Both the position numbers and the translations under genes were made by a program. Source: Lytechinus variegatus (lineage: Eukaryota). From it: 64,000 nucleotides of DNA. The notes beneath the pieces are model-generated. The model was not told the DNA's origin. It saw only the letters and a list, made by a program, of their open reading frames with translations, and searched no databases. Below are positions 6,890-54,410 of this stretch, piece by piece. The stretch covers positions 28,385,438 to 28,449,437 of the forward strand of contig NC_054751.1 in NCBI RefSeq assembly GCF_018143015.1, given 5' to 3'. Within the stretch, counting starts at the first letter, position 1, and every line of letters starts with the position of its first letter.

Positions 6890-7170
6890 ATCTATAATCC
6901 ATCAGTATAACCTACATCATCATCTCCATCATTGTCGTCGTCATCATCATCTATCCTCCATCATCATCTTCTACCATCATCATCATCACCATCATAATTA
7001 TCTTCTATCATCTATCATCATCTATCATCATTATCACCATTTTCATCATCACCATCATCATCACCACCATCATCATCATCACCATCATCATCTTCTATCA
7101 TCCATCATCGCTATCATCATCATTATCACCATTTTCATTATTATCTCCATCATCATCATCAATCTAATAC
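6890..7170. repeat. (CAT/ATC)n imperfect microsatellite, ~280 bp
   Basis: catcatcatcaccatcat... This produces the poly-His artefact ORF 6810..7205. Confidence 0.9.
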
Positions 7171-13741: not shown

Positions 13742-14280
13742 TTCTCTCTTTCAACATCAAGCTTCAGTGTGAAATAAAACTTTCATTGCCCGCAACTTGA
13801 CTACTCACTTATCATCATTCAGGTGTAGAAGATCGTTGATGTAATTCTGTCGTTCCACTGGGTACCCTCTTGCGTCTTTAAAGGCTGTATACGGGGAATG
13901 AATAAAAGGAAAACAATATGACATGTCGGTCATGTTCCCCATTCAGAAATATATGATACCACAATGTACATTTACAGTAATTTGAGCAAGTATCTTGGCA
14001 ATTTCTTCACTGAATGTAACTAAAACTGGATCACTCTGCCTTGTTCCCTGGAGAGCATTTCATGAAACCAAAACTGATTTCACTGACAAATGTTATAAGC
14101 TACTGAAATCATGGCACCTGATTAGTCGAGAGCAAATTAGACAGTGGAAATCACTGAAAGAGAACTCTTCATGAAATGCTCTACTGATAATGCCAAATAG
14201 AGCAAATACTACATGTATGTACAAAGGAGTCCACCAAACAAGTCACATGATGGACTGCAAACCTCTATGAAGACATACAC

Positions 14281-14370
14281 AAGTAAAAAATATCTATTAA
14301 TTGGTCGATATCTTCTTGATCGTTCATAGATTCCACACAGCAAAATATTATCCAGCTGCTCTATTAGACT
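14281..14370 (-). CDS. Candidate following exon of the phosphatase gene. It matches only weakly (GIYERSRRY against the GHCLERQNY / GIYKGDY region), and its donor is uncertain
   Basis: Acceptor ctaatag|AGCAGCTGG is phase-compatible with the previous exon and gives EQLDNILLCGIYERSRRYRPINRYFLL. A possible donor is TTACTT|gtgtat. The support is motif-level only. Confidence 0.3.
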
Positions 14371-14447
14371 ACAGGTAAGTAATGTTAATCTTTCATTTTA
14401 AGGGAAACAATAAAAAAGAAGAAATTAAATAGGAATCAATTACAAAC

Positions 14448-14494
14448 CTTTCAATGCATCCTCTGGCTTAAACCCCTCATGTTCTATCAGATAC
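14448..14494 (-). CDS. DUSP11: Exon of the DUSP11/PIR1-like phosphatase immediately after the catalytic exon
   Basis: Minus-strand translation is (R)YLIEHEGFKPEDALK, against DUSP11 RYLIDVEGVRPDDAIELF. Its phase joins the catalytic exon exactly: CG + G gives Arg. The acceptor is ttttgatag|GTATCTG and the donor is GAAAG|gtttgt. Confidence 0.65.
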
Positions 14495-14671
14495 CTATCA
14501 AAATAGGGGTAAAGTAAACGAGGAAGAGCACAAAATTATTGATAAAGTATACAAAGTATCACGAAGGAAACATACAAAAAAGGAAAACTTTCAGCATAAC
14601 ACATGGCACACACAAGGCATTCATTGAATAATGTATTGCAATCTGACAGCATAATGGTTAATGATTATAAT

Positions 14672-14770
14672 GAGCCAGGTTCGATTCCCACCTCATTACC
14701 AGGTCCCTCGGAGAGGACCTTAAGCCTTTGGTCTTCTGGTTTCTTGCTTACATGCATTCATGCTTTCACC
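14672..14770 (+). mobile_element. 3' fragment of SINE family S2
   Basis: gagccaggttcgattcccacctcattaccaggtccctcggagaggaccttaagcctttggtcttctggtttc matches the reverse complement of 10430-10500. Confidence 0.6.
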
Positions 14771-14986
14771 ATTACCTTCCCCCCCAAAAAAAATAGAAAA
14801 AAAAGAAATAAAATGAATGAATAAATAAAATCAATCAATCAATGAATAAAAATAAATAACAAAGCAATTAACAAATAAATAAAAATATTTACATTTTCAA
14901 TTTCTTTTCAATTAAATTCATTTATGGTTATCAATTTATACATTTATCAATTCATACATCTATCAATTTTCTTTATTTATTACTTA

Positions 14987-15844
14987 GGGGAAGGCGGGGT
15001 AAGTTGTGACAGTTTTTGCTTTTTGCATGTTAGAATTGATATGATTAATAATCTTGTCAAAATAAGTACCTTGCCTTGAAATTTAATTCTTCTGAAATAT
15101 TTTCCACCTATATATAACTTTCTATCCCCACACTGAAAGTCATCGTGACCTTTGAAAAAAACGATGTCAAATGGCTCAACTTGCCCCATATATGGGGTAA
15201 GTTTGAACCACCTTCTGGGGTAAGTTGAGCCACAAAAACTATGTACAAAATGTATGGGGGAGAACCAGCATGTCAATTTTTTGTTTAAAGTCTTTTCACT
15301 TGCTAATTCTCTATAAATACTAACATCCTGTAAAAGGAAAAGAGCAGTCATGTTAATTTGCTCCTTTCAGCCTGCATTTCAATCGATTTTTATGGTTTGT
15401 TTGTTTTTTAAGATACATTACCATAGGAATTACCATGGCTCAACTTGCCCCATGCTGTTTGGCTCAACTTACCCCAGTCCGGACTTAGTGCGATAATTTT
15501 GTATCCACACATTTATTATGCATCCATCATATAAAAGACTATGACAAGAATGAAGATCCATACCTGGACTAATAATGTTGTTATCATGTCTTCATTATAT
15601 TTAAAGACGTGTGTGTATATAAAGCACTTATCTATTTCACACTCTTTTTTACTTTTTTGGCTGAAATTCATATTTTTCCCTCTAAAAAACTACTTTTTGT
15701 TTCAAAGTTGGAAACAATGTGGTGGGGTTAGGGGTTATGCTATGGGTCATCAATACATGACACCACCACAATGTCTGACTCATTCATTATTGGCCTGGGG
15801 CTGGTGGCTCAACTTGCCCCTATGCTCAACTTACCCCGCCTTCC
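14987..15844. mobile_element. ~860-bp TIR element (GGGGAAGGCGGGGTAAGTTG ... CAACTTACCCCGCCTTCCCC) with subterminal direct repeats of GGCTCAACTTGCCCCAT / GGGGTAAGTT
   Basis: The termini are exact inverted repeats, and 15-20-bp motifs are reiterated near both ends. It lies in an intron of the phosphatase gene. Confidence 0.7.
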
Positions 15845-16021
15845 CCTACTATTCATTTATTCTATTTCTTTTATTGTGATTCTTAGGGGGGCAGGGGAGG
15901 GGGTAAATGTTGATGGGAATCATTTGTACCCCAGACTTTCAAACTGATAATGCATCATGTGACTTCTTTTGACTACATGTATATAAACCAATAATGCAAC
16001 ATGTAAGTACATTGTCCTCAC

Positions 16022-16082
16022 CGACATATAAGGTATCCAGTCCTATTCACCCCATGAGTACAGTGCACACCTATAATGGTAT
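16022..16082 (-). CDS. DUSP11: Catalytic exon of the DUSP11/PIR1-like phosphatase, carrying the HCxxGxxR P-loop. It is not present in the supplied ORF track
   Basis: Minus-strand translation is (x)TIIGVHCTHGVNRTGYLICR. This contains the Cys-based PTP active-site motif HCTHGxNRTG and matches DUSP11 (GVHCTHGLNRTGYLICRYL). The acceptor ctttctttttcag|ATACC is preceded by a strong polypyrimidine tract, and the donor is TGTCG|gtgagg. The incoming phase differs from the outgoing phase of exon 21231-21310, so at least one short exon lies between them. Confidence 0.75.
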
Positions 16083-17130
16083 CTGAAAAAGAAAGAAAGA
16101 AATAGAAAAGAAATACCATGAAATATCCACTGAAGTGAGAGTGAGGTACCGTTCTCACTACCTTCCTAAAACCAGTTTTGTGGAAACTAGTTCAACGTGT
16201 AATGAAAATGGTCGAAGTAATCTTCCATACCAGTTCAAAAAACCACCTCGCCATGTTGTTTTCAAGATCGCTTTGCCTTGTTAAACTGATTTTAGCGTAA
16301 GTTCTTCAGGAAGCGATCTTCGCACATTTTGAGCACACTACTGCACACACTGTGTGTAGAATGCCTATGTTGCACTTTCAAATTTCGCACGAAACGTGTC
16401 ACCCCACTGAGAGCATTCCCGTAGCAACAAGATTGCTTTACGTGAAGTGATTTCAAAAACCACTTTCGGGTGATCAAATGGAAACACTAGCAAAGCAACC
16501 TTCCAAACTGGTTTCCTGAACCGATTTCCAGCAAACTAGTTTTAGAAAGTGTAATGACAATGGGGTCTGAAAGAGACAGAGAAAGAGGGTTCAAACAAAA
16601 TAATGTCAAGAAGAAAAAACACACCACAGTGAAAACTAAAAGAAAAATTTAGATCAGGGTTTAACCTAAAAAAAAGTGAGATTAATCATAATGATACTCG
16701 AAGAGAGATTAATCTCCATCGTCTACTTTTGATAAAGAAATCAGTGGCTAGTCACGAAAAGGATTGAGATTGATTTCAATAAAACTTACATTGAGATTTA
16801 TCTCAAACTCATATCTCTTAACACAGCAGAGATCAATCTCAATTTGAATTTCAATGTTGAATCAATCACAGCTCTTTGCAAGACAGGGTCCTTATTAGCA
16901 ATTGATGTAACTGATTTTGTTGATAGTCTTCCAGCTATGCATATTCTTTCAAAACTCGATCAATAATATTCTTAAAGAATAAAAGCTTCTAGAGTCATGG
17001 ATCACTGAGTAAACCTGCAAACTATGAAAACAAGTGCTGGGGTTCAAATCACACTGTTGTCAAGAGGGAGGTATTCATTTCTGGTTATATAGATGAGCAG
17101 TTTGCTTGCACAACTTATTTCGTTTTAGAA

Positions 17131-18229
17131 ACAAGTGGAATGCCTCTGGCCGTCTCACCTGCATCACGCGGTTCAATATAGCAGCAGTGCTGACTTTGAA
17201 TACTACTCTTACTCGCACAAGATGTTCAGTGATACATGGTTACTCTTATGTCCACTTTTTATGAACTAGACCAATAATTACAGAGATATGATGGTTATTC
17301 AACAAAAAAACCCAACATGGCCAAATTTCATTGACCTTACATGACCTTTGACCTTGATCATGTGAACTGAAACTCGAACAGGATGTTCAGTGATACTTGA
17401 TTACTCTTATGTCCAAGTTTCATGAATCAGATCCATAAACTTTCAAAGTTATGATGGTAATTCAACAGATACACCCAATTCGGCCAAAGTTCATTGACCT
17501 TTGACCTTGGTCATGTGACCTGAAACACGCACAGGATGTTCAGTGATACTTGATTACTCTAATGTCCAAGTTTAATGAACTAGACCAATAAACTTTCAAA
17601 GTTATGATGGTAATTCAACAGATACTCCCGATTCGGCCAAAGTTCATTGACCCTAAATGACCTTTGACCTTAATCATGAGACCTGAAACTTGCACAAAAT
17701 GTTCAGTGATGCTTGATTACTATTATGTCCAAGTTTCATGAAACAGATCCATAAACTTTCAAAGTTATGATGGGAATTCAACAGATATCCCCAATTCGGC
17801 CAAAGTTCATTGACCCTAAATGACCTTTGACCTTGGTCATGTGACGTGAAACTCATGCAGGATCTTCAGTGATACTTGATTGACCTTATGTCCCAGTTTC
17901 ATGAACTAGGTCCATATATTTTCTAAGTTATGATGACATTTCAAAAACTTAACCTCAGGTTAAGATTTCGATGTTGATTCCTCCAACATGGTCTAAGTTC
18001 ATTGACCCTAAATGACCTTTGACCTTGGTCATGTGACATGAAACTCTAATAGGATGTTCAGTAATACTTGATTAACCTTATGCCAAGTTTTATTAACTAG
18101 GTCCATATACTTTCTAAGTTATGACATCATTTCAAAAACTTAACCTCAGGTTAAGATTTGATGTTGACGCCGCCGCCGTCGGAAAAGCGACACCTTTAGT
18201 CTCACTTTGCTTCGCAGGTGAGACAAAAA
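17131..18229 (+). mobile_element. Composite repeat, copy 1. It has the head aacaagtggaatgcctctggccgtctcacctgc, an internal ~150-175-bp tandem satellite of about 6 units, and the tail ...gccgccgtcggaaaagcg...cgcaggtgagacaaaa. GTCTCACCTGC near the head is the reverse complement of GCAGGTGAGAC at the tail
   Basis: The element recurs nearly intact at 30412-31524 (same strand) and 52817-54410 (opposite strand). The internal units share ...ttcattgacctttgaccttggtcatgtgacctgaaac...ggatgttcagtgatacttgattac... Confidence 0.85.
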
Positions 18230-18289
18230 TTACTAATCTCTTTTCTTTTGAATTCAATCAGACCATTATTGAAAATGAATATACTTAAT

Positions 18290-19490
18290 AGGGCTGGGAC
18301 TAAAACCCGGGTACCCGAGTCCCGCCCGGAAGCGTCAGGTACCCGGGTAGAAAAATCAATACCCGATACCCGAAAATTGCTCACCTGTATAACGTACATT
18401 TGATTTGTATTGCGTAGTGTAAGACATGATTGTAAACTCATCACATAAGTACACAAGTCTCATTTTGAATCTCACCAATTACCCTCGAAATATCCTTAAA
18501 TATACTAGTTTTTCAAGTGATGATGATGTGACTGAGATCGTTCAATCGTCGCCATGTTTCTTTTGCAGCGCAGTGACGTCATCCAGCCACTGCGACGCAA
18601 GCCAATTTATGAATGAAAATATAGTAAGCATGCGCATTGCAAGCCTCAGCCCCACGCAGGACGTCAAAACGAGTCTGCAATACTCTGTCACCTCGTACCA
18701 ATATCGACCTAGAATTCCACTTTCCTTTATTTCATATAAATTATGAAAGGTATTCTCGGAGGATCTGTTTTCTCACCGATACCACGCAAGTAAGGAAATT
18801 TTATTACTTCTTGCTTTTCCGTCAAATCGTACGAAGTAGCGTCGATGTTGCATCGTGTTTGTGAGTTTGTAGAATCTATCGCTACGTGAACAAAGTCAAT
18901 TGATTTCCGGGTTTCGGAGCGTCAAATGCGCCAGCCAATCACGATCGTGTTACCATTTTCGGTTTATGATGAACTGAAAATGGTATCAAGAACGTTATTG
19001 GCTTGCGCCTCGTATGCTCTGAAACCCGGAAATCAATTGACTTTGTTCACGTAGCGATAGATTCTACAAACTCACGAACACGATGTAATATCGACGCTAC
19101 TTCGTAAGATTTTGACGGAAAAGCAAGAAGTAATAAAAATTTGCTTACCAGTGCGGTATCGGTGGGAAAACAAATCCTCTGAGAATACCTTTTATAATTC
19201 ATATAAAATATAGAAAAGTGGATTTCTAGGTCGATTTTGGTACGAGGTGACAGAGTATTGCAGACTCGTTTTGACGGAATACTGCGTGGGGCTGAGGCTT
19301 GCAATGCGCATGCTTACTATATTTTCATTCATAAATTGGCTTGCATTGCATTGGCTTGATGATGACGTCACCTATGGGGTTTTTCCACCAGTCATATTTC
19401 GAGCGACATAATTTTCGGGTACCCGGGTACCCGCCCGAAAATTACCACGGGTACCCGAAAAGAAAAAAACCTGAAAGTCCCAGGCCTAAT
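18290..19490. mobile_element. ~1.2-kb foldback (long palindromic) element centred near 18975. Each arm carries TGACGTCA (CRE), CCAAT and GCGCATGC(G) motifs, and the termini are GGGTACCCG-rich
   Basis: 18560-18960 is the near-exact reverse complement of 18985-19385. The outer ends gggctgggactaaaacccgggtacccg ... cgggtacccgaaaag...agtcccaggcct are inverted. The centre is diverged but keeps agccaatcacg against agccaataacg. Confidence 0.8.
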
Positions 19491-20065
19491 ACTTAACAAG
19501 ATAAAGATCAATGCATCTTGTCATCTGCAGTAGAAATTTCACACAAAGAGCTCTAGTTTTACATGATTTCATGCACTAAGTTTGCTAATTATCATACGTA
19601 TTAATATCATCTCTCTGCCTCGATGATTGACATGTTTGAAATGACACTTATTCAAATAAATTTTAACAATAAGAGACTTGGCTTTTATCCACTTATCAAA
19701 ATTAAATGTATTTACCTTTATCTTTATTGGACTCCTTAAATGATGACATCGCAGTAGTAAACCTGAAATAAAATGTGACACAGACAATATTAAGAGAAAT
19801 TAAATGTAGCCCCAATTGTACCTCTATTACATACAGTATTTCTAAGGGAATAACATATAAAAACGGTGTTTCTTTTTTTTCTTTGTCATAGTGAATCTGA
19901 ACATGTGTGTGTGTGTGGGTGAATCATAGAATATAGAGTCCAGTCCTCCACAATGTCTCTGATGTCCATTGACAAGAACTAAAATGTGGTATGCATATCA
20001 AATGATTTTGGAAACTCTAGAAGCGTATAAAGTGTGTGCGGAGCAAACCAGAATCCGATGATCAG

Positions 20066-20266
20066 GGGGTGTTTCACAAAGATTTAAGTATGACTTAGAG
20101 TCGCACTTTAATGCCAAGTTGCCGTGTGTTTTAAAGGCATGACGGCATTGGTCAGATCATGCAAAGACGACGCACACTACTGCATATTGATCAATAAGAT
20201 TGCGCGTTTCATGTTGTGTGTGCGCCGGCATTTAAGTCATACTTAACTCTTTGTGAAACACCCCCC
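20066..20266. mobile_element. MITE with GGGGTGTTTCACAAAG... termini, related in end sequence to 494-680
   Basis: ggggtgtttcacaaagatttaagtatgacttag ... taagtcatacttaactctttgtgaaacacccc. Confidence 0.75.
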
Positions 20267-20835
20267 AGGGCTAATAATATATATACATGTATTTAAAGTG
20301 CATAGAGATGATCTGGGCCCAGTCTCACAAACAGGTGCAACAGATTCAAATCAAACAAAAATGATGATGTATATGGAATATATATATTTAAGAGATAGAG
20401 AGTTAAGTCAATCACAATTTAGGTTTGATTTTAATCCAATGGCACTCTTTGTAGGAAAGAACTATATTGTGTAGCTTAGTACACATCCTTTATTTGTCAA
20501 AGCAAAGCATCATGGTCTAAATTTATAAGTCTACCATAGGATGAATTGAATTGATAAAGCATTTCAAACCAGCAGTTCTCGATGTCAACAATAACCACAA
20601 ATTCTTGGATGCAGCGTATGCCATCAATTTGCCATTCACTTCATGCACTGAACTTAAAATTCAACTTCTTGTTCAGTGACGTGTGACCCCACAACTTCCG
20701 GACTACTTGTTTCGCAGCTAGCACTAGTCTCGTCGCATCCGCTTTCACAACACGTTCTCAATCTCTTCTTACACTGTGAGGAGGAATCATTGTAAAAGTT
20801 GCTGTTTGTGTCATCCCTCTTGGTGTATAATGTTC

Positions 20836-20922
20836 TTACCTTCAAGCTATCGGAAGTTACAGCGTCACACAAGTAAATGACATGAGGTACATCCTGGAAC
20901 TTTTTGTTATTGTCGAGAGCAA
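20836..20922 (-). CDS. Candidate internal exon of unknown assignment, lying inside the large intron of the phosphatase gene
   Basis: On the minus strand, acceptor atgttttcag|TTCTTGCTC and donor TTGAAG|gtaaga bracket (x)LALDNNKKFQDVPHVIYLCDAVTSDSLK. The phase is not compatible with the neighbouring phosphatase exons as modelled, and no family motif was recognised. Confidence 0.25.
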
Positions 20923-21230
20923 GAACTGAAAACATATTCTTGTTGTTTAAGCTTATACGGTGCATACCATTCAGCAGTGAATATTTGCGCCAACAACCTG
21001 CATTTGTGTTAGACTTGTCTCAAGACCCAATTGATGAAACTTTCAATCAGGTTCTGTAACCACATACTAGGATGGGGCGGGGGGAGCATTTCACTAAACA
21101 AATCTGTTACTTGTTATTTATTTGCAACTACTGGGCTCAGAACACAATTTTTTAGTGAAAATCAATGACTAATTGTTTTGTGAAACAAGAAACAAGATAC
21201 TGGTACTGTATAATAAACTGTTATACTCAC

Positions 21231-21310
21231 TTCTCTATGACTTCTGGTGAAGGCACAACATGACCCTGAGTGAAAATCTTTACATATTGCACATCCCTGT
21301 CAATAAAAAT
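21231..21310 (-). CDS. DUSP11: Next exon of the same DUSP11/PIR1-like phosphatase gene
   Basis: Minus-strand translation is IFIDRDVQYVKIFTQGHVVPSPEVIE(K). It is very similar to the DUSP11 segment YLKIFTVGHQVPDDETIFKF. The acceptor is ttttctttcag|ATTTTTATT and the donor is GAGAA|gtgagt, ending in phase 2. Confidence 0.7.
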
Positions 21311-22052
21311 CTGAAAGAAAAACAGAATCAAAGTGATTTGTTAACATTCTGATAACAATGTTTATAATATTTACAATAACACTATTTTTTAGAATATGGC
21401 ATAACATCTAAAGGTATATTGAAACTTTGAAAGGGTAAAGACTGACTTTTTAATAGAAAAATTACCCCCAAAATATGTAAAAGGTAGGCCTACAGGTTTC
21501 ACAGAAGACCATTTATTTTTCTGGGACATATGTTTGGTCCTGAAAAGGACCACCCAAACTTAAATCAGTTAGATATGATAAGCAATAGACAATTTGCATG
21601 AAGACAAAACATGGGTGGCACTAGGCTAATGATGGGGGGGGGGAGCAAGACACCCAAAAGGTGATATATTTCCTCAACTGATGACGATCTACAGAATTTC
21701 TATTGCGCCATATATCTCTATAAAAAAACATTTACAGGTGCAAGCTCACCCAATCAAAGTAATTACTACACATAATAAGTGATTTTTGAGGGACAATTAG
21801 AAAAGTTCAATGTTGTTGATTTAAAGGAGCGAAGAAGGGAGTTCCAAAGGTGTGGAGCAATAGATCGATTACAAGGACCAGACCTCTCCTTCATCATTTC
21901 TTTCTTTATCTCCACCTTTCTTCCTTTTGCCACCCCCTTCCCTTCTTCTTTCACTACTTGAAAATCATGGGGGGGTTGGTCACCCCCTGCCCCCCACCCC
22001 CCTCCCTCCCCGGTGGGGCCGCCCCCTGGGATAAAAATATACATGTACGTAC

Positions 22053-22152
22053 TTGTGGATTATAGTATCTAGTTGTGGCAGTCAGATCAATGAGAAGACC
22101 CAATTTGTAATTCATCTTATCTAGTTTGTCAAGAAGGGCATCTGGTGTGAAT
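22053..22152 (-). CDS. DUSP11: Exon of a DUSP11/PIR1-type dual-specificity (RNA 5'-phosphatase-like) phosphatase, N-terminal part of the phosphatase domain
   Basis: Minus-strand translation is (x)FTPDALLDKLDKMNYKLGLLIDLTATTRYYNPQ. This matches the conserved LGLxIDLTxTxRYY segment of DUSP11 and the mRNA-capping-enzyme triphosphatase domain. The acceptor is tttttttttag|ATTCACACC and the donor is CACAA|gtacgt. Confidence 0.7.
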
Positions 22153-22900
22153 CTAAAAAAAAAAATACGAAAAACAAATTAAGAACATGCGTAATTATAT
22201 AAATACTGGATGGGATACCAGTGGGGAGCATTTCATCAACATTTTTATCAGACAAGTTGTCAGAACTGATCGGCTAAGAGGAACTGATACCATGGTAACC
22301 ATTGAAATAAACAGGACTTGTTGGTTAAATGTCTGACAAGTCCTTTCATGAAAGTGCACTCCCAGAAATATTTGACAAGTTAGATCCAATAACGACCATA
22401 TCAGGGATGAGTGTAACATTGGCCCTAAAGAGTGTCCAGAATATATTTGATATCTCATGAAAAAAATTCCAGTCAATATACGCACTACATGTATTGTAAT
22501 CAATATTCATTAGACCATGCAAGTCAGCATTAACATGGACAGCAGATTTTGTACATGATGCATTTGGAGAATTCATAACATTTTGGCGAATCAAGCGATA
22601 TGCTTTAATATTGCACAGATAAACATGCTGACCAAAATACACAATTTTTATGCATTGCTGAAAACAAACAAATCACACAAGCATGAGATGACTATGAGTC
22701 CTTAAATAAAAGTTATCCGATGTTGACTTACTTGTCTTTTTCTCGTAATCTGAAGACCAGTTTCTGAAAATGTCAATAATAAAATAATGAATAATGGATG
22801 TCAAAGAAAAATAAAATAAGATTTGGTGTGACTCACATAAGAACAAGAGTAAGTTTCAACTAAAATGTAATTAAAGGAAACTACATGTATTATAAATCAG

Positions 22901-23208
22901 GGGCCAATTGCACGAAAGGGTCTTTGCAAGAACCGTCTTTCGTGTCGCCCATCTTTTATGATGTGCCATGTGAAACGCATTTTAAATAATTCATCTCCAA
23001 ACATATTTCATTCGTCCGTTAAAATAAGCAAAATATTTGTTTATAAAATATGATATATCATGAAACTGTATAAAATTTGATGTAAAAGCAAGCTAACGAA
23101 TCTTATTTTTTGTCATAAATTTCAGAAACACCCCGCTTATAAGCGAATCATAAAGATGGGCGACACGAAAGACGGTCCTTGGAAAGACCATTTCGTGCAA
23201 TCTGCCCC
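22901..23208. mobile_element. MITE with ~55-bp TIRs
   Basis: gggccaattgcacgaaagggtctttgcaagaaccgtctttcgtgtcgcccatcttt ... aaagatgggcgacacgaaagacggtccttggaaagaccatttcgtgcaatctgcccc. Confidence 0.8.
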
Positions 23209-26200
23209 AGGATGATGATAATGAAAAATAAAAAGCTTGCCACAAGAGGGCTCATATTGGGAGATGTGGATAAAAATCTTTAAAATAGATGTAAGAATAG
23301 TGTTAATTCATATTTAATTAGCTTGATGTAAATTAATATAATTATGGTTTACTATGAGGCAGTCATGGGCCACTTTTCATAATTTTATGATGGCAACATC
23401 AGGCCCAAAGAACAATCTAAAAAAAATACAAATAACAAAAGCATGTGTGCCAGTGTGTGCACACACAGCGTTCTCGCCAGTGTATAATACGCATGGTTCA
23501 AACACCATGCATGCGGAAATGGAGACCAAGTGGAACCATGCGTAAAATTTCAGCGACATGCGTGGAAAAATTAAATGGAAATATTCAGAAAAAAATAATA
23601 CACTTCATGAACTCATCTTGGTGATATCAACTTCATTTATCGGGTTGCGCCGAAGTCCTACCAACTTAAGACCACTTACAGGCCTACTACGGCTAGGAAA
23701 GTGGCAAGGCGCCCAGCTAGCTCGAGGCTGCTATTGCGGGCATATGACAGCACGGTACGGTCGTTCCGTTGCCTATTCCCCCGTTTGCCCTGCACATCAC
23801 ACCGGCTATGCTCCATGGTGAAACGTCAGATCACAGACTCACACAAAACTTACATGTCGATCTACATGCCATTACCTTGTTTGGTGTTGGAACACACAGT
23901 CCTAAATCACTAGGAAGTGTCCGTGATATATTTTGTATTTGTGTATGTGCACGAAAGCCACACGTATGCGCTCAGCTAGCTCAGCGAATTAAGTTGGATG
24001 ACGCGTCTCAACTCTATTGACCAACTCCATTACATATCACATGACCCTCAATCATGAACGCTGTTTTATTCCGAAGTTGAATGCATTTCATGATTTCCCT
24101 TTTCTCGAAAATATTTACAATTCATAAGCTGGAAAGCTGCACTTCTCTTTCTTTGGACTGAACGCCAACGGCAAGTATCTGTGCATTTATGTGCATTTGT
24201 GTGGGCTTAAAAATACGCCACAATGGGGCTTCCTTAGCGGTCTCTATTTGATGAAAAGGCCGTCGCTTCCGCGCTCCGCCCTCCCGCACCCACCCCCCAG
24301 GAGTGGCAGCACAAGTCCCCGACATGGGTGAATTTTTTTCTGGAGAGAACGCTGTGCACACATAGTAACAGATGCTTATTCCCACTCATTCAGCCTAGAC
24401 AAATTCCATCATGTTTCTCCACTAGTTTAGCTCAAAACCTTTTAATTGACTACAGCATTGTGACCTCAAAAACGATGAAGAGAAGCAAAAATGTTCCCCT
24501 ACTGTAAAGGTCACACAAGTGGGTCAGTCACTTTTATTCTAGGGTGATTCAAGGAAATATATCCACATCTAATTAACTGACCAATCACACGACAACAATC
24601 TTCTGATGTCAAAGACAAGATATTTATAAATTGGCATTCACTCACTTTTCTTAATGGTACTTTGAGTGGGAGTATGTTGGTCCCTTTGATGACATCGCCA
24701 AAAGGTTCATAATTCATCCACCTGTGGAAAAAAGTCAGAAATAAAAAATTCATTTAGAACTACACTGTACATGTACCTACATGTATGTGTAACAATACGA
24801 AGATTTTCAAAGTGGTTGGGTACATGGATTTCTATCTCAGAAGAATGAGGCCATGAGTGTGTAGAGACTGTAACAATTCAATAACCAATTTCGAACAACC
24901 ACAAATTTGCATCAATATTCATAACTTCGAGCTTGTAATGTATCAAAGCAAAAAGATGAAAGAAAAAATTATACATAAGAAAGTTGAAGAAGACCTAAAA
25001 GTATTTAGCTACCTGATTTAACAAGTATGCGTATGTGTGCTTTTAATCAGCCTAATTGCCATAATTCAACTTTTAGGACCAAATGTAAATACTCCAATGC
25101 TACTTGGACACTGTGTCCATATAACAGTAGTATACACGATTTTGTTTCATATCTCCATAGAAATGAGTCTAAATGGCATAAATTTTCCTGTAAAATGTAT
25201 GGACTTAATACAAATGGAAAGTATGATTAGTATTGAGTTGAGTACTTTTTGGTGATATTTGATGCATCTTTTTACCAGACATAATGGCTAATAAACTGGG
25301 AGCTCGATGTTCATCTGTCGGCCTCACAGAGACTAACCCTGCAAGCCAAGGTGGCATTAATGATTAATCCATTCAAATTGTCAGAGCAAGACTGCTCTGT
25401 GAAAGGTATCCAAGGGGTCAGGATATTAGAATACAAGAGAACTATAAAAACTAAAATCAAAGTAAATGAGAATTAAACCGTTGGATTTGTGTCCAACAGT
25501 TGGAAAAAGTCCATCAACCGAGATGGAGTCAGGGAGAAAAGAAAGTTTTTAGCTAGAAGCAAGGGACGGACAATTTGAACTGATCATCAGAAGGTCCCAT
25601 AACATTGATATACATCGTACATGTACATTTACGATGGGTCAACCAAGGGGGCATTTGGGTCACCTTGCAGAAGTGGAAATCTCAACAGCAGACAACAATT
25701 ATGTGACTGGCATCCGTCAGAAAGTCAGGTGTAAAGTTCTGCAGAATATGTGGAATCGATATTTTATGAAACCAATAAATCAATAATCTGCTGACAAGCA
25801 TTGAAAACACTACAACAGATTGTTTTGTCACAAATGTGGCCATTGAATAGAATCAAGAGGATCTAACTGGGAAGAAAGTGTACTCCTGTCAATGTGCCAT
25901 GAACCCTTTAGACACATTTGCAAAGGAAGCAATTACCATGCTGAAGAAGCTTGACACTGAAGCAGACCAACCTAAAGAAAATAAAAAACTGCCTTTCCAA
26001 AGCAGGAATGAAGGTAATGCCATGACACTCATTAGAGGTGCTTCCAAATTATTCAACAGTGAGGGTTTGGGGAATGACAAATTTGAGTGCATTCCTCAAC
26101 GAGTAGGGTGTCGAGTGTAGGGTGCCACGTTTCATCGAAACAGATCTGGCATACTTTAGTGCTAGCCTTTTATTCACAATCGGAAATCACATCATCGATT

Positions 26201-27636: not shown

Positions 27637-28970
27637 CTAAGACTCTATATTCAGTTCCAAATTCTGTCTCCTTTTTAGGTTGGCCGGATCATGTCCTGGT
27701 GGGTCAGCATCAAACTTGAACTTCACAGGTTCACATCTCCAATACTTATCCAATCCATTTTCGAAGCTGTGGACACTGGGTGCATTTACTAATTCACTAC
27801 TTAGGCTATTCCAAGGTTTCCTCATTCTTATGTAAAAGGAATTCTTACGTTTCTCAGTTACTGACCTCGGAATGTACAATTTTTTATCATGACCCCTGGT
27901 AGGCCCCTGCACCTGTCCCAAATCTGGCACTACCTCCTGGTCATACCTGTGAAATAACTTGTATGTTTCAATCATGTCTCCTCGCGCACGGCGATAAGCT
28001 AATGTAGGAAGTTTTAGTTGAATCAATCTTTGTTCATATGGGAGGTTCTTAACCTCAGGTACCAACTTAGTGGCCCTTCTTTGTACATTTTCTATTGCTT
28101 GAATATGTTTCTTTAAGTATGGACTCCATACTGCATGAGCATACTCCAAATGAGGTCTAATCAATGCTTTGTATAGGAGCAAGAAGTTCTCCTTGTGAAG
28201 ATAAACAAATGTTCTCCTAATTAGATTCATTAGCCTATTGGCTTTATTTATGTTTGACTGAAAGTGTTGGTCAAAACTAAGCTTTGTGTCGACAATCACT
28301 CCTAAATCTTTACTAGTTTCAACTTGTGATAGATTATGTGACGCATTATCATGAGTCATTGTATAGTCAATGAAATCATCATTTCTTTTACCTATTGTAA
28401 GTACACAACATTTATCCGGATGGAACTTTAATAGCCACTTGTCTGACCATGAAACTAGACGATCTAAGTCCGCTTGTAATAACTCAGCATCTCTGTCATT
28501 TTTTACATGCTTGTATAACTTGGTGTCATCTGCAAATAAATGAACAGTACTTGACAAAATCTGATCTGGTAGATCATTAATGTACATTACAAAAGCAGGG
28601 GTCCGAGGACACTCCCTTGCGGTATTCTGCTGGTTACATCAGCCCAGTCAGAGAACACACCATTCACACAAACACGGTGCTGTCGACCAACAAGAAATGA
28701 CCTGACCCACTCACATATGAGCTTCGATATGCCAAATCCCTCAACTTTGGCTAAAAGTCTTTGGTGTGGGACCTTATCAAAGGCTTTCATGAAATCTAGG
28801 TAGATGACATCAACTGCACCACCAACCTCCAACATATTTGTCCAATCATCTAACACATTGAGTAATTGCAACATTGTTGATCGTCCTGATACAAATCCAA
28901 ATTGTTTTGAACTGAGAAGGTTGTTGCTCTTCACATGCTCATATATTTCATCCCTCAAGATAGACTCCAT
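27637..28970 (-). pseudogene. Frameshifted reverse-transcriptase coding remnant of the LINE
   Basis: Two adjacent ORFs in different frames share continuous RT homology (fingers/palm motifs through the C-terminal domain). Confidence 0.8.
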
Positions 28971-30411: not shown

Positions 30412-31524
30412 ACAAGTGGAATGCCTCTGGCCGTCTCACCTGCATCACGCGGTTCAATATAGCAGCAGTGCTGACTTTGAATACTACTCTAACTCGCACA
30501 AGATGTTCGGTGATACATGGTTACTCTCATGTCCACTTTTTATGAACTAGACCAATAAACTTACAGAGATATGATGGTTATTCAACAAAAAAACCCAACA
30601 TGGCCAAAGTTCATTGACCTTACATGACCTTTGACCTTGATCATGTGACCTGAAACTCGAACAGGATGTTCAGTGATACTTGATTACTCTTATGTACAAG
30701 TTTCATGAATCAGATCCATAAACTTTCAAAGTTATGATGGTAATTCAACAGATACACCCAATTCGGCCAAAGTTCATTGACCTTTGACCTTGGTCATGAC
30801 CTTGGTCATGTGACCTGAAACGCGCACAGGGTGTTCAGCGATACTTGATTACTCTAATGTCCAAGTTTAATGAACTAGACCAATAAACTTTCAAAGTTAT
30901 GATGGTAATTCAACAGATACCCCCGATTCGGCAAAAGTTCATTGACCCTAAATGACCTTTGACCTTAATCATGAGACCTGAAACTTGCACAAAATTTTCA
31001 GTGATGCTTGATTACTATTGTGTCAAGTTTCATGAATCAGATCCATAAACTTTCAAAGTTATGATGGGAATTCAACAGATATCCCCAATTCGGCCAAAGT
31101 TCATTGACCCTAAATGACCTTTGACCTTGGTCATGTGACGTGAAACTCATGTAGGATGTTCAGTGATACTTGATTAACCTAATGTCCAAGTTTCATGAAC
31201 TAGGTCCATATATTTTCTAAGTTATGACATTTCAAAAACTTAACCTCAGGTTAAGATTTCGATGTTGATTCCTCCAACATGGTCTAAGTTCATTGACCCT
31301 AAATGACCTTTGACCTTGGTCATGTGACATGAAACTCTAATAGGATGTTCAGTAATACTTTATTAACCTTATGGCCAAGTTTTATTAACTAGGTCCATAT
31401 ACTTTCTAAGTTATGACCTCATTTCAAAAACTTAACCTCAGGTTAACATTTGATGTTGACGCCGCCGCCGCTGTCGGAAAAGCGGCGCCTATAGTCTCAC
31501 TTTGCTTCGCAGGTGAGACAAAAA
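30412..31524 (+). mobile_element. Composite satellite-bearing element, copy 2
   Basis: The head and tail are identical to copy 1, and the internal tandem units are collinear. Confidence 0.85.
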
Positions 31525-34302: not shown

Positions 34303-34546
<244 letters not shown>

Positions 34547-35484: not shown

Positions 35485-35550
35485 TTTACACACACATAAA
35501 TAAATAAATATATATATATAAATATGAATATATATATATATATATAAATA

Positions 35551-35639
<89 letters not shown>

Positions 35640-35760
35640 ATATAAATATATATTAAATAAATGAATATATATATAAAATATTCCATATATATATTTGATT
35701 GAAATATTAAATCAAATATATATATATTCATTTATTTATTTATTTATATATAAGCAAACA
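35485..35760. repeat. (TA)n / (TAAA)n compound AT microsatellite
   Basis: aaataaataaatatatatatat... Confidence 0.9.
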
Positions 35761-46479: not shown

Positions 46480-47193
46480 TTCCTTTCGTATTATTTATGA
46501 TGATAGTTTTAGCTTTCTTCCTCTTTTTTCTTCCTATCTTTCTTTCCTTCTTTCATTTCAATCTTTCTTTGTTTCTTCCCTAATTTTTTTTGTTACTATC
46601 TTTTTTATTTTCCTTTTTTTCTTTAATTCGTTCTCTCTATCTTAAAAATATTTTTCTCCATTTTTTTCTCTTTCTTTCTTTTTTTCTTTCTTTTTTTCTT
46701 TCTTTCTTTCCTTCTTTCTTTCCTTCTTTCCTTCCTTCCTTCCTTCTTTTTTGATATTTTTCTTTCTTTAATTCTTGAGTCCATCCATCCTATATTCATC
46801 TCTTCCTTTCTTTCCTTCCTTTTACCCTTTTCTTTCTCATTCTTTGTTACTTTCTTTGTTTCTTTCTTCCACCCATCATTTATTACCTTTTTATTTCTTC
46901 TTTTCTTTGTCTCTCAGTCTTTCTTTTTTTCTTCCTTTCATCTTCTCTTTTACCTTTTCTTTTTTATATTGCGTATTTCCTTCCTTTATTTATTTATTTC
47001 CTTCTATCTATCATTTTACCTTTCTTCCTTCTTTCAATCCTTCCTCTCTTTCTTTCTTTTGTCCTTCTTTCCATCTCTCCTTTAACCCTTTCTTTTTTAT
47101 TGCTTCTTCTTTCTTTCCTTATACTACTTTCTGGATTTGTTCTTTCTTTCTGTATTGCTTGCTTCATTTCTTTCCTTCATTTCTTTTTTCTTT

Positions 47194-47225
<32 letters not shown>

Positions 47226-47468
47226 ATTTTTGTTCCTTTTTTATTCCTTCCTTCCTTTCCTTCTTTAGTTCTTTCTTTTTCATTCCTTCACATCTATCCT
47301 TTCTTTACTTTATCTTTTTTACTTCCTTCCTTTTTTATTCTTTCTTTCTTTTCCTCCCTTTCCTTCCTTCCTTTCTTCCTTCCTTCCTTTCTCTTATTTT
47401 TTCCTTTTCCTTCCTTCCTTCCTTTCTTTCCTTCTTCGTTTCTGTCTTGCTTTCTTTTTGTCCTTCAT
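46480..47468. repeat. ~1-kb polypyrimidine (TTTC/TTCC/CTTT)n tract on the plus strand
   Basis: Almost no purines over ~1 kb. It produces the artefact ORFs 46775..47485 and 47100..47504. Confidence 0.9.
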
Positions 47469-48790: not shown

Positions 48791-49424
48791 ATGTCGCTGT
48801 AGCAGTTTCAGGTTGGTACACAGGCACCTGCTCAGTTTTATGTGGGAAATCCCAGTCGGTATTGTGCAATAAGCGTGTCCTGAAGACAATACATGTACTA
48901 CTGATTTCCACCCCACCGGAATTGAATTATAAATAGATTGATCGTTCAAGGAAAAATATACCAGGTTTTCTATAAACCAATGTGAAAGCAAAATACTTGT
49001 AGATTATTCCCAAAAGAAAAGAACTACATCCTGAAAAGAATACTATTGAATTGCACGTCCACCAGAATTACAGATTGATCTTTCAATCAATGGAATAGAC
49101 TTAAATTAAAGTAATGAATGAGATCAAGAAGAACATATACATTTTCATTTTCAGTTTGTCGCCATATTTCATACATTTTACATTTAGATAGACATATAAA
49201 GTTAAAGATGATATGAGATCATGAAATGAAATTGTTCTATTGTATGGTTTTAAAATACTATTTCAACAATATACTGTACTTGGTGAGTAAAAAAACTTGA
49301 CATCTCACAAATCCCCAATTTAAGGAAAGAATATGTCATGAATGCATAATCATTATAATGTATATGAATGGAAATAGGATGTTCTCCCAAATAATTTGAT
49401 ACCATATTCATGTGGTACAGTCCG

Positions 49425-51172
49425 ACCTCTCTTATCCGGACACGTTGGGACCAGCACCAATCCGGATAAGGGATTTATCCGGATCTGGGAGACCCAATAT
49501 TAAATACACGCAGCTGCGCTGCCGGCTGCCTCCCCAGGCTACCGGCGGTAGCTACACTATTGTAGTGGGCGTACGGTAAAGATAATATTCACTGCAGAGT
49601 CAGTGCAAATTATAGGCAGTGTTTTTATGGAAATGAAATCGATCGATAGCCAAAACTCTTGGATAATTTACCTGCTAAAATGACTGAGGTATACAACCAG
49701 CATACCTCGAAAGAAAGAGAATGACTCGATGAAACCAAGTTTTAAAATTAGATCATCGCGGCGGGTATCGCAGCTACGCAATGTTATACAAATAGCGAAT
49801 AGGCATGAGTGCAATGGTGCAAGATTTCGCATGAGGTGAAAGAAAGATGCTCTATTCAACGAGGCGTTAGCCGAGTTGAATAGAGCATTTCTTTCTTTCA
49901 CCGAATGCGAAATCTCGCACCATTGCACGAATAAGAATATTCGCTATTTCTGTTGTACAACGCCTCGGAATCTAGCGAAAATATGAAAAAAGAAGGGTTT
50001 TTCCCTCCAGTAATCTATGAAAAAGGAGCAAAAATATTGAAAGCGAAAAGCAAAATCCCACAAGCGCACATGATCTTGGACAGCATTGCGCATTTAGCCA
50101 GCGGGTTGTACGCGCATTGTCATCTTATTCAATGAAATCGCATTGTGACGTCACCTCCTAAAGCCGTGCAACGGTACATTTTGGATGGTACGTCTTGTGT
50201 GCAACGGTACGAATGTGTGACATTCAGCCTTCCATTTGATCGCGTACAACAAGCTAAGTAGGCGTTGTACAATATACAAATAGCGAATAGGCATGAGTGC
50301 AATGGTGCAAGATTTCGCATGAGGTGAAAGAAAGATGCTCTATTCAACGAGGCGTTAGCCGAGTTGAATAGAGCATTTCTTTCTTTCACCGAATGCGAAA
50401 TCTCGCACCATTGCACGAATAAGAATATTCGCTATTTCTGTTGTACAACGCCTCGGAATCTAGCGAAAATATGAAAAAAGAAGGGTTTTTCCCTCCAGTA
50501 ATCTATGAAAAAGGAGCAAAAATATTGAAAGCGAAAAGCAAAATCCCACAAGCGCACATGATCTTGGACAGCATTGCGCATTTAGCCAGCGGGTTGTACG
50601 CGCATTGTCATCTTATTCAATGAAATCGCATTGTGACGTCACCTCCTAAAGCCGTGCAACGGTACATTTTGGATGGTACGTCTTGTGTGCAACGGTACGA
50701 ATGTGTGACATTCAGCCTTCCATTTGATCGCGTACAACAAGCTAAGTAGGCGTTGTACAACAGCCATTGTTACACTGACTGTAGGCTCAAACATGATAGA
50801 TGGCGCTGTCCGTATTGAGGCCTAAAGTTAGCTAGCAAGGCATGTGTTGTTTTTCCCGCGAAGCAAAAAGAGAAACGTGATGAAATGTTTGCACTGCGCC
50901 CTGATTTACTGGAAATTATCATTCCTAAAGTTCTTTTGGTGATTTGGGTGAGATATTTTCATGAAATATATGTTTGGTGTAGGGTGACTATGTTGGGAAA
51001 TATATGTAATCAAAGTGAGTTTACATATAGGATTGAGTTTAGATTGAAATCTTATTTCCTCACGTACCGGTACTAGATTAAAAAAAAAAAAAAAAAAATC
51101 TCGGCAAGTGTGCGTCCGGATAATAGAGAGATCCGGATAAGGGGAGGCCGGATAAGAGAGGTCGGACTGTAT
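49425..51172. mobile_element. TIR-bounded DNA element (TIR TACAGTCCGACCTCTCTTATCCGG) containing an exact tandem duplication of a 488-bp internal unit. Each unit carries a ~60-bp-arm hairpin
   Basis: The left end ggtacagtccgacctctcttatccgga and the right end tccggataagagaggtcggactgta are inverted. Units 49786-50273 and 50274-50761 are identical, which explains the duplicated ORFs 49668/50129 and 49953/50441. Confidence 0.8.
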
Positions 51173-52816: not shown

Positions 52817-54410
52817 TTTTTGTCTCACCTGCGAAGCAAAGTGAGACTATAGGCGCCGCTTTTCCGACGGCGGCGGCGGCGTCAACATCAAATCTTAACC
52901 TGAGGTTAAGTTTTTGAGATGACATCATAACTTAGAAAGTATATGGACCTAGTTAATAAAACTTGGCCATAAGGTTAATCAAGTATTACTGAACATCCTA
53001 TTAGAGTTTCATGTCACATGACCAAGGTCAAAGGTCATTTAGGGTCAATGAACTTAGACCATGTTGGAGGAATCAACATCGAAATCTTAACCTGAGGTTA
53101 AGTTTTTGAAATGTCATCATAACTTAAAAAATATATGGACCTAGTTCATGAAACTTGGACATAAGGTTAATCAAGTATCAATGAACATCCTGCATGAGTT
53201 TCACGTCACATGACCAAGGTCAAAGGTCATTTAGGGTCAATGAACTTTGGACGAATTGGGGATATCTGTTGAATTCCCATCATAACTTTGAAAGTTTATG
53301 GATCTGATTCATGAAACTTGGACATAATAGTAATCAAGCATCACTGAACATTTTGTGCAAGTTTCAGGTCACATGATCAAGGTCAAAGGTCATTTAGGGT
53401 CAATGAACTTTGGCCGAATTGGGGATATCTGTTGAATTCCCATCATAACTTTGAAAGTTTATGGATCTGATTCATGAAACTTGGACATAATAGTAATCAA
53501 GCATCACTGAACATTTTGTGCAAGTTTCAGGTCTCATGATTAAGGTCAAAGGTCATTTAGGGTCAATGAACTTTGGCCGAATCGGGGGTATCTGTTGAAT
53601 TACCATCATAACTTTGAAAGTTTATGGATCTGATTCATGAAACTTGGACATAATAGTAATCAAGCATCACTGAACATTTTGTGCAAGTTTCAGGTCACAT
53701 GATCAAGGTCAAAGGTCATTTAGGGTCAATGAACTTTGGCCGAATTGGGGATATCTGTTGAATTCCCATCATAACTTTGAAAGTTTATGGATCTGATTCA
53801 TGAAACTTGGACATAATAGTAATCAAGCATCACTGAACATTTTGTGCAAGTTTCAGGTCTCATGATTAAGGTCAAAGGTCATTTAGGGTCAATGAACTTT
53901 GGCCGAATTGGGGGTATCTGTTGAATTACCATCATAACTTTGAAAGTTTATTGGTCTAGTTCGTTAAACTTGGAAATTAGAGTAACCAAGTATCACTGAA
54001 CATCCTGTGCGTGTTTCAGGTCACATGTCCAAGGTCAAAGGTCAATGAACTTTAGCCGAATTGGGTGTATCTGTTGAATTACCATCATAACTTTGAAAGT
54101 TTATGGATCTGATTCATGAAACTTGTACATAAGAGTAATCAAGTATCACTGAACATCCTGTTCCAGTTTCAGGTCACATGATCAAGGTCAAAGGTCATGT
54201 AAGGTCAATGAACTTTGGCCATGTTGGGGTTTTTTGTTGAATAACCATCATATCTCTGTAAGTTTATTGGTCTAGTTCATAAAAAGAGGACATAAGAGTA
54301 ACCATGTATCACTGAACATCTTGTGCGAGTTAGAGTAGTATGCAAAGTCAGCACTGCTGCTATATTGAACCGCGTGATGCAGGTGAGACGGCCAGAGGCA
54401 TTCCACTTGT
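52817..54410 (-). mobile_element. Composite satellite-bearing element, copy 3 (reverse orientation). It is longer because it has more internal tandem units
   Basis: This is the reverse complement of the head and tail (ttgtctcacctgcgaagcaaagtgagac ... gcaggtgagacggccagaggcattccacttgtt). About 8-9 internal units of ~174 bp are visible. Confidence 0.85.

Follow-up and report, generated by a model that had tools for sequence, protein, structure and literature searches.

The closest described systems are non-autonomous Ac-family hAT transposons such as maize Ds and the Drosophila Mar and Vege MITEs, which are non-coding, carry short imperfect terminal inverted repeats (TIRs), and are flanked by an 8-bp target site duplication (TSD) of the form nTnnnnAn. 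The maize Ac terminus starts TAGGGATGAAA, and the maize double Ds is a whole Ds inserted in reverse into another Ds, with the TIRs duplicated too. Long arms able to fold back are found in the Drosophila FB and sea-urchin TU elements; these arms are terminal and made of tandem subrepeats, and the TSD of TU elements is 8-9 bp long, as for FB. A hairpin RNA locus can also derive from a MITE, as in the case of MADE1-derived miR-548. Among hAT elements, the TSD is 8 bp and the TIRs are 5-27 bp, and the Ac target consensus nTnnnnAn is distinguished from the Buster consensus nnnTAnnn (PMC3517528). The hAT element Hermes uses 8-bp nTnnnnAn targets, and its BED domain binds subterminal repeats (PMC10368747).

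In the window (the whole stretch of Lytechinus variegatus DNA that was analysed, 64,000 nucleotides), a discrete unit of 1,200 bp has the 8-bp nTnnnnAn TSD, the short imperfect TIRs and the non-coding character of Ds and Mar/Vege. It differs from them in its interior, an 800-bp spacerless palindrome built from a module that also occurs in elements with unrelated termini. We consider it probable that positions 18289-19488 represent a single hAT insertion, of a non-autonomous Ac-family transposon whose interior consists of a duplicated module, termed here the X core, and that no promoter role is needed to account for it. The first-pass annotation had offered a choice between an inverted duplication of a bidirectional promoter-like cassette and a foldback transposon. 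The data support a hybrid of the two, namely a transposon insertion, as indicated by the TSD, the TIRs and the subterminal repeats, combined with an inverted duplication of a ~400-bp module. The coordinates of the features are listed in Table 1.

Table 1 Positions of the element, its parts and the adjacent host exons in the window.
Feature	Position	Strand	Description
Whole element	18289-19488		1,200 bp; discrete unit framed by TSD and TIR
Left TSD copy	18281-18288	none	ATACTTAA; identical to 19489-19496; T at position 2, A at position 7
Right TSD copy	19489-19496	none	ATACTTAA; 8/8 identical to left copy
Left TIR	18289-18301	+	TAGGGCTGGGACT; 12/13 against the reverse complement of 19476-19488
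Right TIR	19476-19488	-	TAGGCCTGGGACT read on the minus strand; pairs with left TIR
Left subterminal region	18302-18385	+	TACCCG/CGGGTA repeats, including palindromic CGGGTACCCG
Left unique internal segment	18386-18572	+	No right-side counterpart
Left palindrome arm, X core copy	18573-18968	+	Begins at TGACGTCA (18574-18581); 91% identical to right arm
Right palindrome arm, inverted X core copy	18969-19371	-	Ends at TGACGTCA (19363-19370)
Right outer and subterminal region	19372-19475	+	Three CGGGTACCCG motifs
Upstream host exon	19716-19762	-	Canonical AG/GT borders; colinear with DUSP11
Downstream host exon	16022-16082	-	Catalytic motif VHCTHGVNRTGYLICR; DUSP11-like

The assignment to the Ac family of hAT elements is based on the 8-bp nTnnnnAn TSD, the short imperfect TIRs and the subterminal repeats. 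The TSD for which the first-pass annotation had advised a search is present as two perfect copies of ATACTTAA, and the sequence fits the Ac consensus and not that of Buster. The termini are inverted, as had also been suggested, with a 13-nt imperfect TIR matching at 12 positions and with palindromic CGGGTACCCG motifs. When the whole 64-kb window was scanned, the two TIRs were the sole zero-mismatch matches to the TIR. The TAGGG start of the left TIR resembles the maize Ac terminus and fits YARNG, the typical start of hAT TIRs, and the TAGGC start of the right TIR fits four of its five positions, the deviating base being the one TIR mismatch. The hexamer TACCCG/CGGGTA occurs 21 times in the window, and 12 of these occurrences are located at 18308-18372 and 19416-19457, at most ~90 bp from the tips. 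Short subterminal repeats near both tips are likewise found in Hermes, where they are bound by the BED domain (PMC10368747). The TACCCG repeats differ from the TCGAT-type repeats of the nearest relatives described below, and this was counted against the hAT reading. The termini TAGGSCTGGGACT together with the TACCCG repeats probably mark an unannotated non-autonomous hAT family in Lytechinus. No second copy of the element and no autonomous partner or transposase was found in the 64-kb window, and in a metagenome scan with the terminus pattern only two unrelated GC-rich contigs matched, both by chance. The literature searched yielded nothing specific on foldback/TU elements or hAT MITEs of sea urchins.

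The palindrome inside these ends spans 799 bp, with arms of ~396 and ~403 nt that meet near 18968 with no spacer. Alignment of this segment with its own reverse complement gave 807 columns with 718 matches (89%) and 16 gap columns, or 91% identity with gaps left aside. The first-pass annotation was therefore right about a large spacerless inverted repeat, while its description as 1.2 kb long and near-perfect was not borne out. The folding and self-alignment of the arms that it had proposed yielded an extreme predicted structure: as RNA, the 799-nt palindrome has a predicted folding energy of -592 kcal/mol compared with -192 ± 7 for shuffled sequences (z = -59), and the whole element as DNA has a predicted value of -447 kcal/mol. 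Outside the palindrome lie 284 nt on the left side (18289-18572) and 117 nt on the right side (19372-19488), and mirror symmetry between these two stretches is limited to the TIR and subterminal motifs. The left unique segment 18386-18572 gave no alignment with the outer part on the right. The innermost 50 alignment columns are the least similar (76%). The low identity at the centre would fit a stabilisation of long palindromes by central asymmetry; the argument is weak because the same part of the X core is poorly conserved between families.

These geometrical features bear on whether the unit could be a foldback transposon like Drosophila FB or sea-urchin TU, one that would have moved by means of its long inverted arms. 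The large inverted repeat, the 8-bp TSD and the sea-urchin host are in agreement with such an element, and the arms could fold back like those of FB and TU, whose TSDs are of 8-9 bp. However, the palindrome of this element stops short of the termini and leaves the unmirrored stretches of 284 nt and 117 nt outside it, its arms are unique in sequence, and Tandem Repeats Finder (TRF) detected no tandem array within 18289-19488. The arms are framed by separate short TIRs and hAT-type subterminal repeats, and the relatives of the element carry the X core singly. A foldback transposon in the classical sense, with terminal arms made of tandem subrepeats, is barely tenable for this locus.

A palindromic chimeric long read or a similar assembly artefact was also considered, as spacerless palindromes are a recognised class of long-read artefact. 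Comparison of one arm with the other revealed 36 substitutions (20 transitions and 16 transversions) and 9 gap columns, and the differences are biased to CpG, which points to evolutionary divergence and not to read error. The palindrome also lies within an intact TIR/TSD frame. An exact look-up of an 85-aa ORF in the right arm returned no record of the locus from a second assembly. Because of the 9% arm divergence and the clean frame, an artefact is extremely improbable. A spacerless palindrome with ~400-bp arms has evidently persisted here long enough for its arms to diverge by ~9%.

The element encodes no protein. An internal ORF of 106 amino acids had no Pfam match and no homologue by protein search. 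A coding reading of the X core was rejected, as codon periodicity is absent from the substitutions among relatives (chi-square p = 0.57). Since it lacks coding capacity, the element is regarded as non-autonomous. With respect to MITEs, it is non-coding and has both TIR and TSD; its 1,200 bp exceed the typical MITE size (below ~800 bp), which was counted against the hAT reading, and its size without the duplicated arm would be ~800 bp. Unlike Ds and Mar/Vege, it is CpG-rich, not AT-rich. The Rfam scan gave mir-5681 (31.6 bits against a gathering threshold of 88) and MIR403 (27.7 against 70) as best matches, both far below threshold and reflecting hairpin shape only. No tRNA-like unit was detected in the element or in its metagenome relatives, and the latter also had no Rfam match.

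The relatives were recovered with the spurious 85-aa right-arm ORF as a phmmer query against 1.84 billion representative sequences. Four clusters were matched with E = 1e-19 to 1e-26, and these clusters with their members led to 11 marine-metagenome contigs in ENA (L003-L013), several of them from Tara Oceans. Exact-pattern scans of the viral_contigs (three patterns) and genome_contigs collections gave no matches. In each of the 11 contigs the arm sequence is present as a single copy of 73-83% identity (75-83% for the left arm), to which the two window arms align at one and the same segment. No large palindrome was found in any of these contigs, where the longest inverted arms are at most 24 nt. 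The contigs group into three families (A, B and C) of short TIR-bounded elements. Family A comprises five copies that are 97-99% alike, with a ~1,040-bp unit, TCGAT-type subterminal repeats and the ends TAAGCCTGAGTC...GACTCAGGCCTA, which match the window TIR at 10 of 12 positions by manual base-by-base comparison. Of the nine 8-bp flanks available for family A, eight conform to nTnnnnAn, a pattern that 9.6-9.9% of 8-mers in the window fit by chance (binomial P = 8e-8). On this basis family A is classed as an Ac-type hAT as well, separate from the family of the window element. Families B and C have units of ~700 bp and ~722 bp and TIRs of 16-18 nt that are unlike those of the window element (CACGTAGAAGAATTGGCC in L005 and CACAACGAAAAATTGC in L008). 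The left and right flanks of the metagenome copies do not match each other as TSDs would; the contigs are probably chimeric, having been assembled from short reads across repeats that are 97-99% identical. L004 starts with CACTACGAAC and has CTA on both sides, which hints at a CACTA/EnSpm affiliation. In the same 3-kb contig, a hAT-like terminus TAGGCCTAGACTC at 1519-1531 directly adjoins a B-type X unit, and a second family-A-like terminus CTAAGCCTGAGTAATTCTCTATCGAT is located 540 bp downstream at 2767-2790. This arrangement suggests that one genome harbours elements of both the hAT type and the B type, which may be nested.

Homology to the arms of the window element starts exactly at TGACGTCA in all comparisons and continues colinearly for ~370-420 nt to the palindrome centre. 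The corresponding TGACGTCA positions are 18574 and 19370 in the window, ~190 in L007, ~1603 in L004 and ~125 in L008. Upstream of TGACGTCA, the left and right sides of the window element, the 5' end of family A and the 5' end of families B and C share no significant similarity, and the left unique segment of the window element likewise has none to families A, B and C. Homology upstream of this boundary between the window and the three families was rejected, since local alignment scores were no better than those of shuffled sequences. The X core is delimited as a non-coding module of about 370-620 bp that always begins at the self-complementary octamer TGACGTCA. A CpG-rich module that starts at the same octamer in elements with unrelated ends, and in at least three unrelated upstream contexts, is a small example of modular exchange between DNA-transposon families, and the TGACGTCA boundary could be a hotspot of recombination or template switching.

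The two arms are mutual closest relatives, with 92% identity to each other against at most 83% to any other family. With the outgroup families used for polarisation, 11 derived substitutions were assigned to the left arm and 15 to the right, a split which shows that neither arm evolves faster and says nothing about the absence of selection. Because the arms are nearest to each other and the derived changes are balanced, these data indicate one inverted duplication in the lineage of the element, after which the two arms drifted to about the same extent. A nested structure made by two separate insertions of oppositely oriented X-bearing elements would instead draw on the mobility of the X core that is seen in other contexts. 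The closeness of the arms to each other speaks against this, as do their truncation at the same X positions at both the outer and inner ends and their abutting without a spacer. In addition, neither arm is flanked by a TSD or an X-type TIR, and a nested origin is very improbable. Maize double Ds and rearranged Ds are comparable to the window element in that they are hAT-derived, non-autonomous and carry their own sequence duplicated in inverse; here, in contrast to double Ds, the duplication is confined to an internal segment and each terminus occurs once.

A probable sequence of events is as follows. Mobility would depend on a hAT transposase acting in trans, which would bind the 13-nt TIRs and the subterminal TACCCG repeats, excise the element and insert it across an 8-bp staggered target, and so generate the duplication of ATACTTAA. 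In the interior, a ~400-bp X core that is non-coding and CpG-rich and starts at TGACGTCA is duplicated in inverted, tail-to-tail orientation; this core travels singly in other short TIR-bounded elements. The palindrome would have arisen in one event, the likeliest route being fold-back or template-switch synthesis in the course of replication or gap repair, after which the arms would have drifted neutrally to ~9% divergence. A random replication error would not predict that the outer edge of the palindrome falls exactly where the X core begins on its 5' side, at TGACGTCA, and this coincidence was counted against the duplication route. The CRE, CCAAT and GCATGCGC motifs are cargo inherited with the X core and were automatically mirrored by the duplication. 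No promoter or enhancer role need be invoked, and such activity is not favoured.

The promoter-type motifs themselves are where the first-pass annotation had placed them. The CRE, CCAAT and other motifs that it quoted were all found and are mirrored between the arms, with TGACGTCA at 18574 and 19363, GCATGCGC at 18628 and 19306, and AGCCAAT at 18600 and 18933 on the plus strand and at 18997, 19335 and 19350 on the minus strand. AGCCAAT occurs 2-3 times per arm, compared with 0.05-0.07 expected, a number reached in no more than 4 of 5000 shuffles; about 1% of dinucleotide shuffles contained TGACGTCA, and about 1% contained GCATGCGC. All of these motifs were chosen post hoc from a large vocabulary. 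As the arms are copies of each other, the motifs constitute one independent set and not two. The cluster is genuine as sequence, and its function is not demonstrated by its presence.

The over-represented AGCCAAT and the base composition are what an exapted regulatory element would display, with the X core acting as a portable intronic promoter or enhancer of the phosphatase gene or a neighbour, or driving convergent transcription. The element has a CpG observed/expected ratio (o/e) of 1.3-1.5 and is the most CpG-rich stretch of the window (64-kb median, 0.52); the left arm alone has 27 CpGs (o/e 1.47), and all X-bearing units are CpG-rich (1.4-1.7). Such a ratio is also expected of promoter-like sequence and was counted against a reading as transposon only. 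Across the window element and families A, B and C, the octamer TGACGTCA is the only motif that is universally kept. A GTAAG pentamer ~225 nt downstream of it is invariant across lineages, and a TATA-like stretch is also present in the core. Against a regulatory role, the outer AGCCAAT is present only in the window element and family A, and GCATGCGC only in the window element and family B, so that the two are not jointly conserved in families B and C. Columns with CpG differ between the arms at 21.7%, compared with 6.9% elsewhere (3.1-fold; Fisher p = 9e-4), with 18 CpGs common to both arms, 9 present only in the left arm and 3 only in the right. CpG enrichment is thus present, yet the protection from methylation-driven decay that characterises a CpG-island-type promoter is not seen. 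The loss of CpGs in the arms is the pattern left where methylation drives their decay, as in neutral DNA that is methylated, and not that of a protected promoter. The balanced split of derived changes also weighs against this role in that neither arm is faster, although an absence of selection is not shown thereby. If the X core is read in the direction from the CRE through the TATA-like stretch to GTAAG, the two copies are convergent and not divergent, and since they are convergent the arrangement is not a bidirectional-promoter architecture. Moreover, the element serves no flanking exon or ORF. With only the CRE-like octamer conserved, CpGs decaying ~3 times faster and X copies that would be convergent, the bidirectional promoter or enhancer put forward in the first-pass annotation is unsupported, and we regard an exapted regulatory element as quite unlikely. 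For annotation purposes, the apparent "intronic bidirectional promoter" becomes a transposon insertion with defined ends, to be masked as a repeat and not labelled as regulatory.

A more speculative proposal, which we judge unlikely, is that the X core is a portable regulatory cassette swapped among transposon families and that double-stranded RNA (dsRNA) from the convergent copies could feed the silencing of all X-bearing elements. If this were true, the X core would have been captured or exchanged repeatedly in echinoderm-type genomes between families with unrelated termini, those of the window element and family A being of the hAT type and those of families B and C being TIRs of the CAC... 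type. The dsRNA would come from convergent transcription or from an intronic hairpin.

The host of the insertion is a minus-strand DUSP11/PIR1-like gene ("RNA/RNP complex-1-interacting phosphatase") at ~13829-24723. Its exons, bordered by canonical splice sites, are colinear with DUSP11/PIR1, and the assembled peptide matches this family with E = 1e-42. Elsewhere in the window, a 250-aa ORF at 866-1618 is 100% identical to an NCBI protein, which identifies the DNA as that of the green sea urchin. The best protein matches of the phosphatase are 47-50% identical and belong to other phyla, and no echinoderm orthologue was retrieved via the word-indexed protein search; sea urchin records may lack an annotation of this gene, or the search index may have missed it. 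The element was correctly placed in an intron of the phosphatase gene by the first-pass annotation: it lies between the exons at 19762-19716 and 16082-16022, in an intron of 3,633 nt, and begins 227 nt downstream of the donor. It would thereby provide the host intron with a potential hairpin of ~400 bp in both DNA and pre-mRNA. In this respect it is similar to MADE1/miR-548, likewise a transposon-borne intronic inverted repeat, which would give a long hairpin in the pre-mRNA. A small MITE-like inverted repeat, with 33-nt arms that are 97% complementary and a 135-nt loop, is located at 20065-20265 in the neighbouring intron of the phosphatase gene.

No paralogous empty site was found within the window, and a neighbouring satellite-bearing repeat stops at ~18229, 60 bp short of the insertion. 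This repeat belongs to an element with 163-bp tandem repeats that is present in three copies, at 17211-18229 (+), 30491-31524 (+) and 52817-54331 (-). The copies share ends of ~330 bp at 96-97% identity, one copy ends ~60 bp before the hAT insertion site, and the element may be a transposon that carries a satellite. At 49416-51171, a Tc1/mariner-like element was identified that is flanked by TA and bounded by perfect 24-nt TIRs (TACAGTCCGACCTCTCTTATCCGG). It contains a 488-bp tandem duplication that is 100% identical (49785-50760), carries GTGACGTCACC, and ranks second in the window for CpG richness (o/e about 1.3-1.4). Two adjacent ORFs with RVT_1 matches at 27637-28970 (-) are probably a degraded LINE. 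Long microsatellites are also present in the window, namely (CAT)n of ~80 units at 6915-7161, (TA)n of 49 units at 34446-34543, (AT)n of ~130 units at 35496-35752 and (CTTT)n of ~234 units at 46513-47457.
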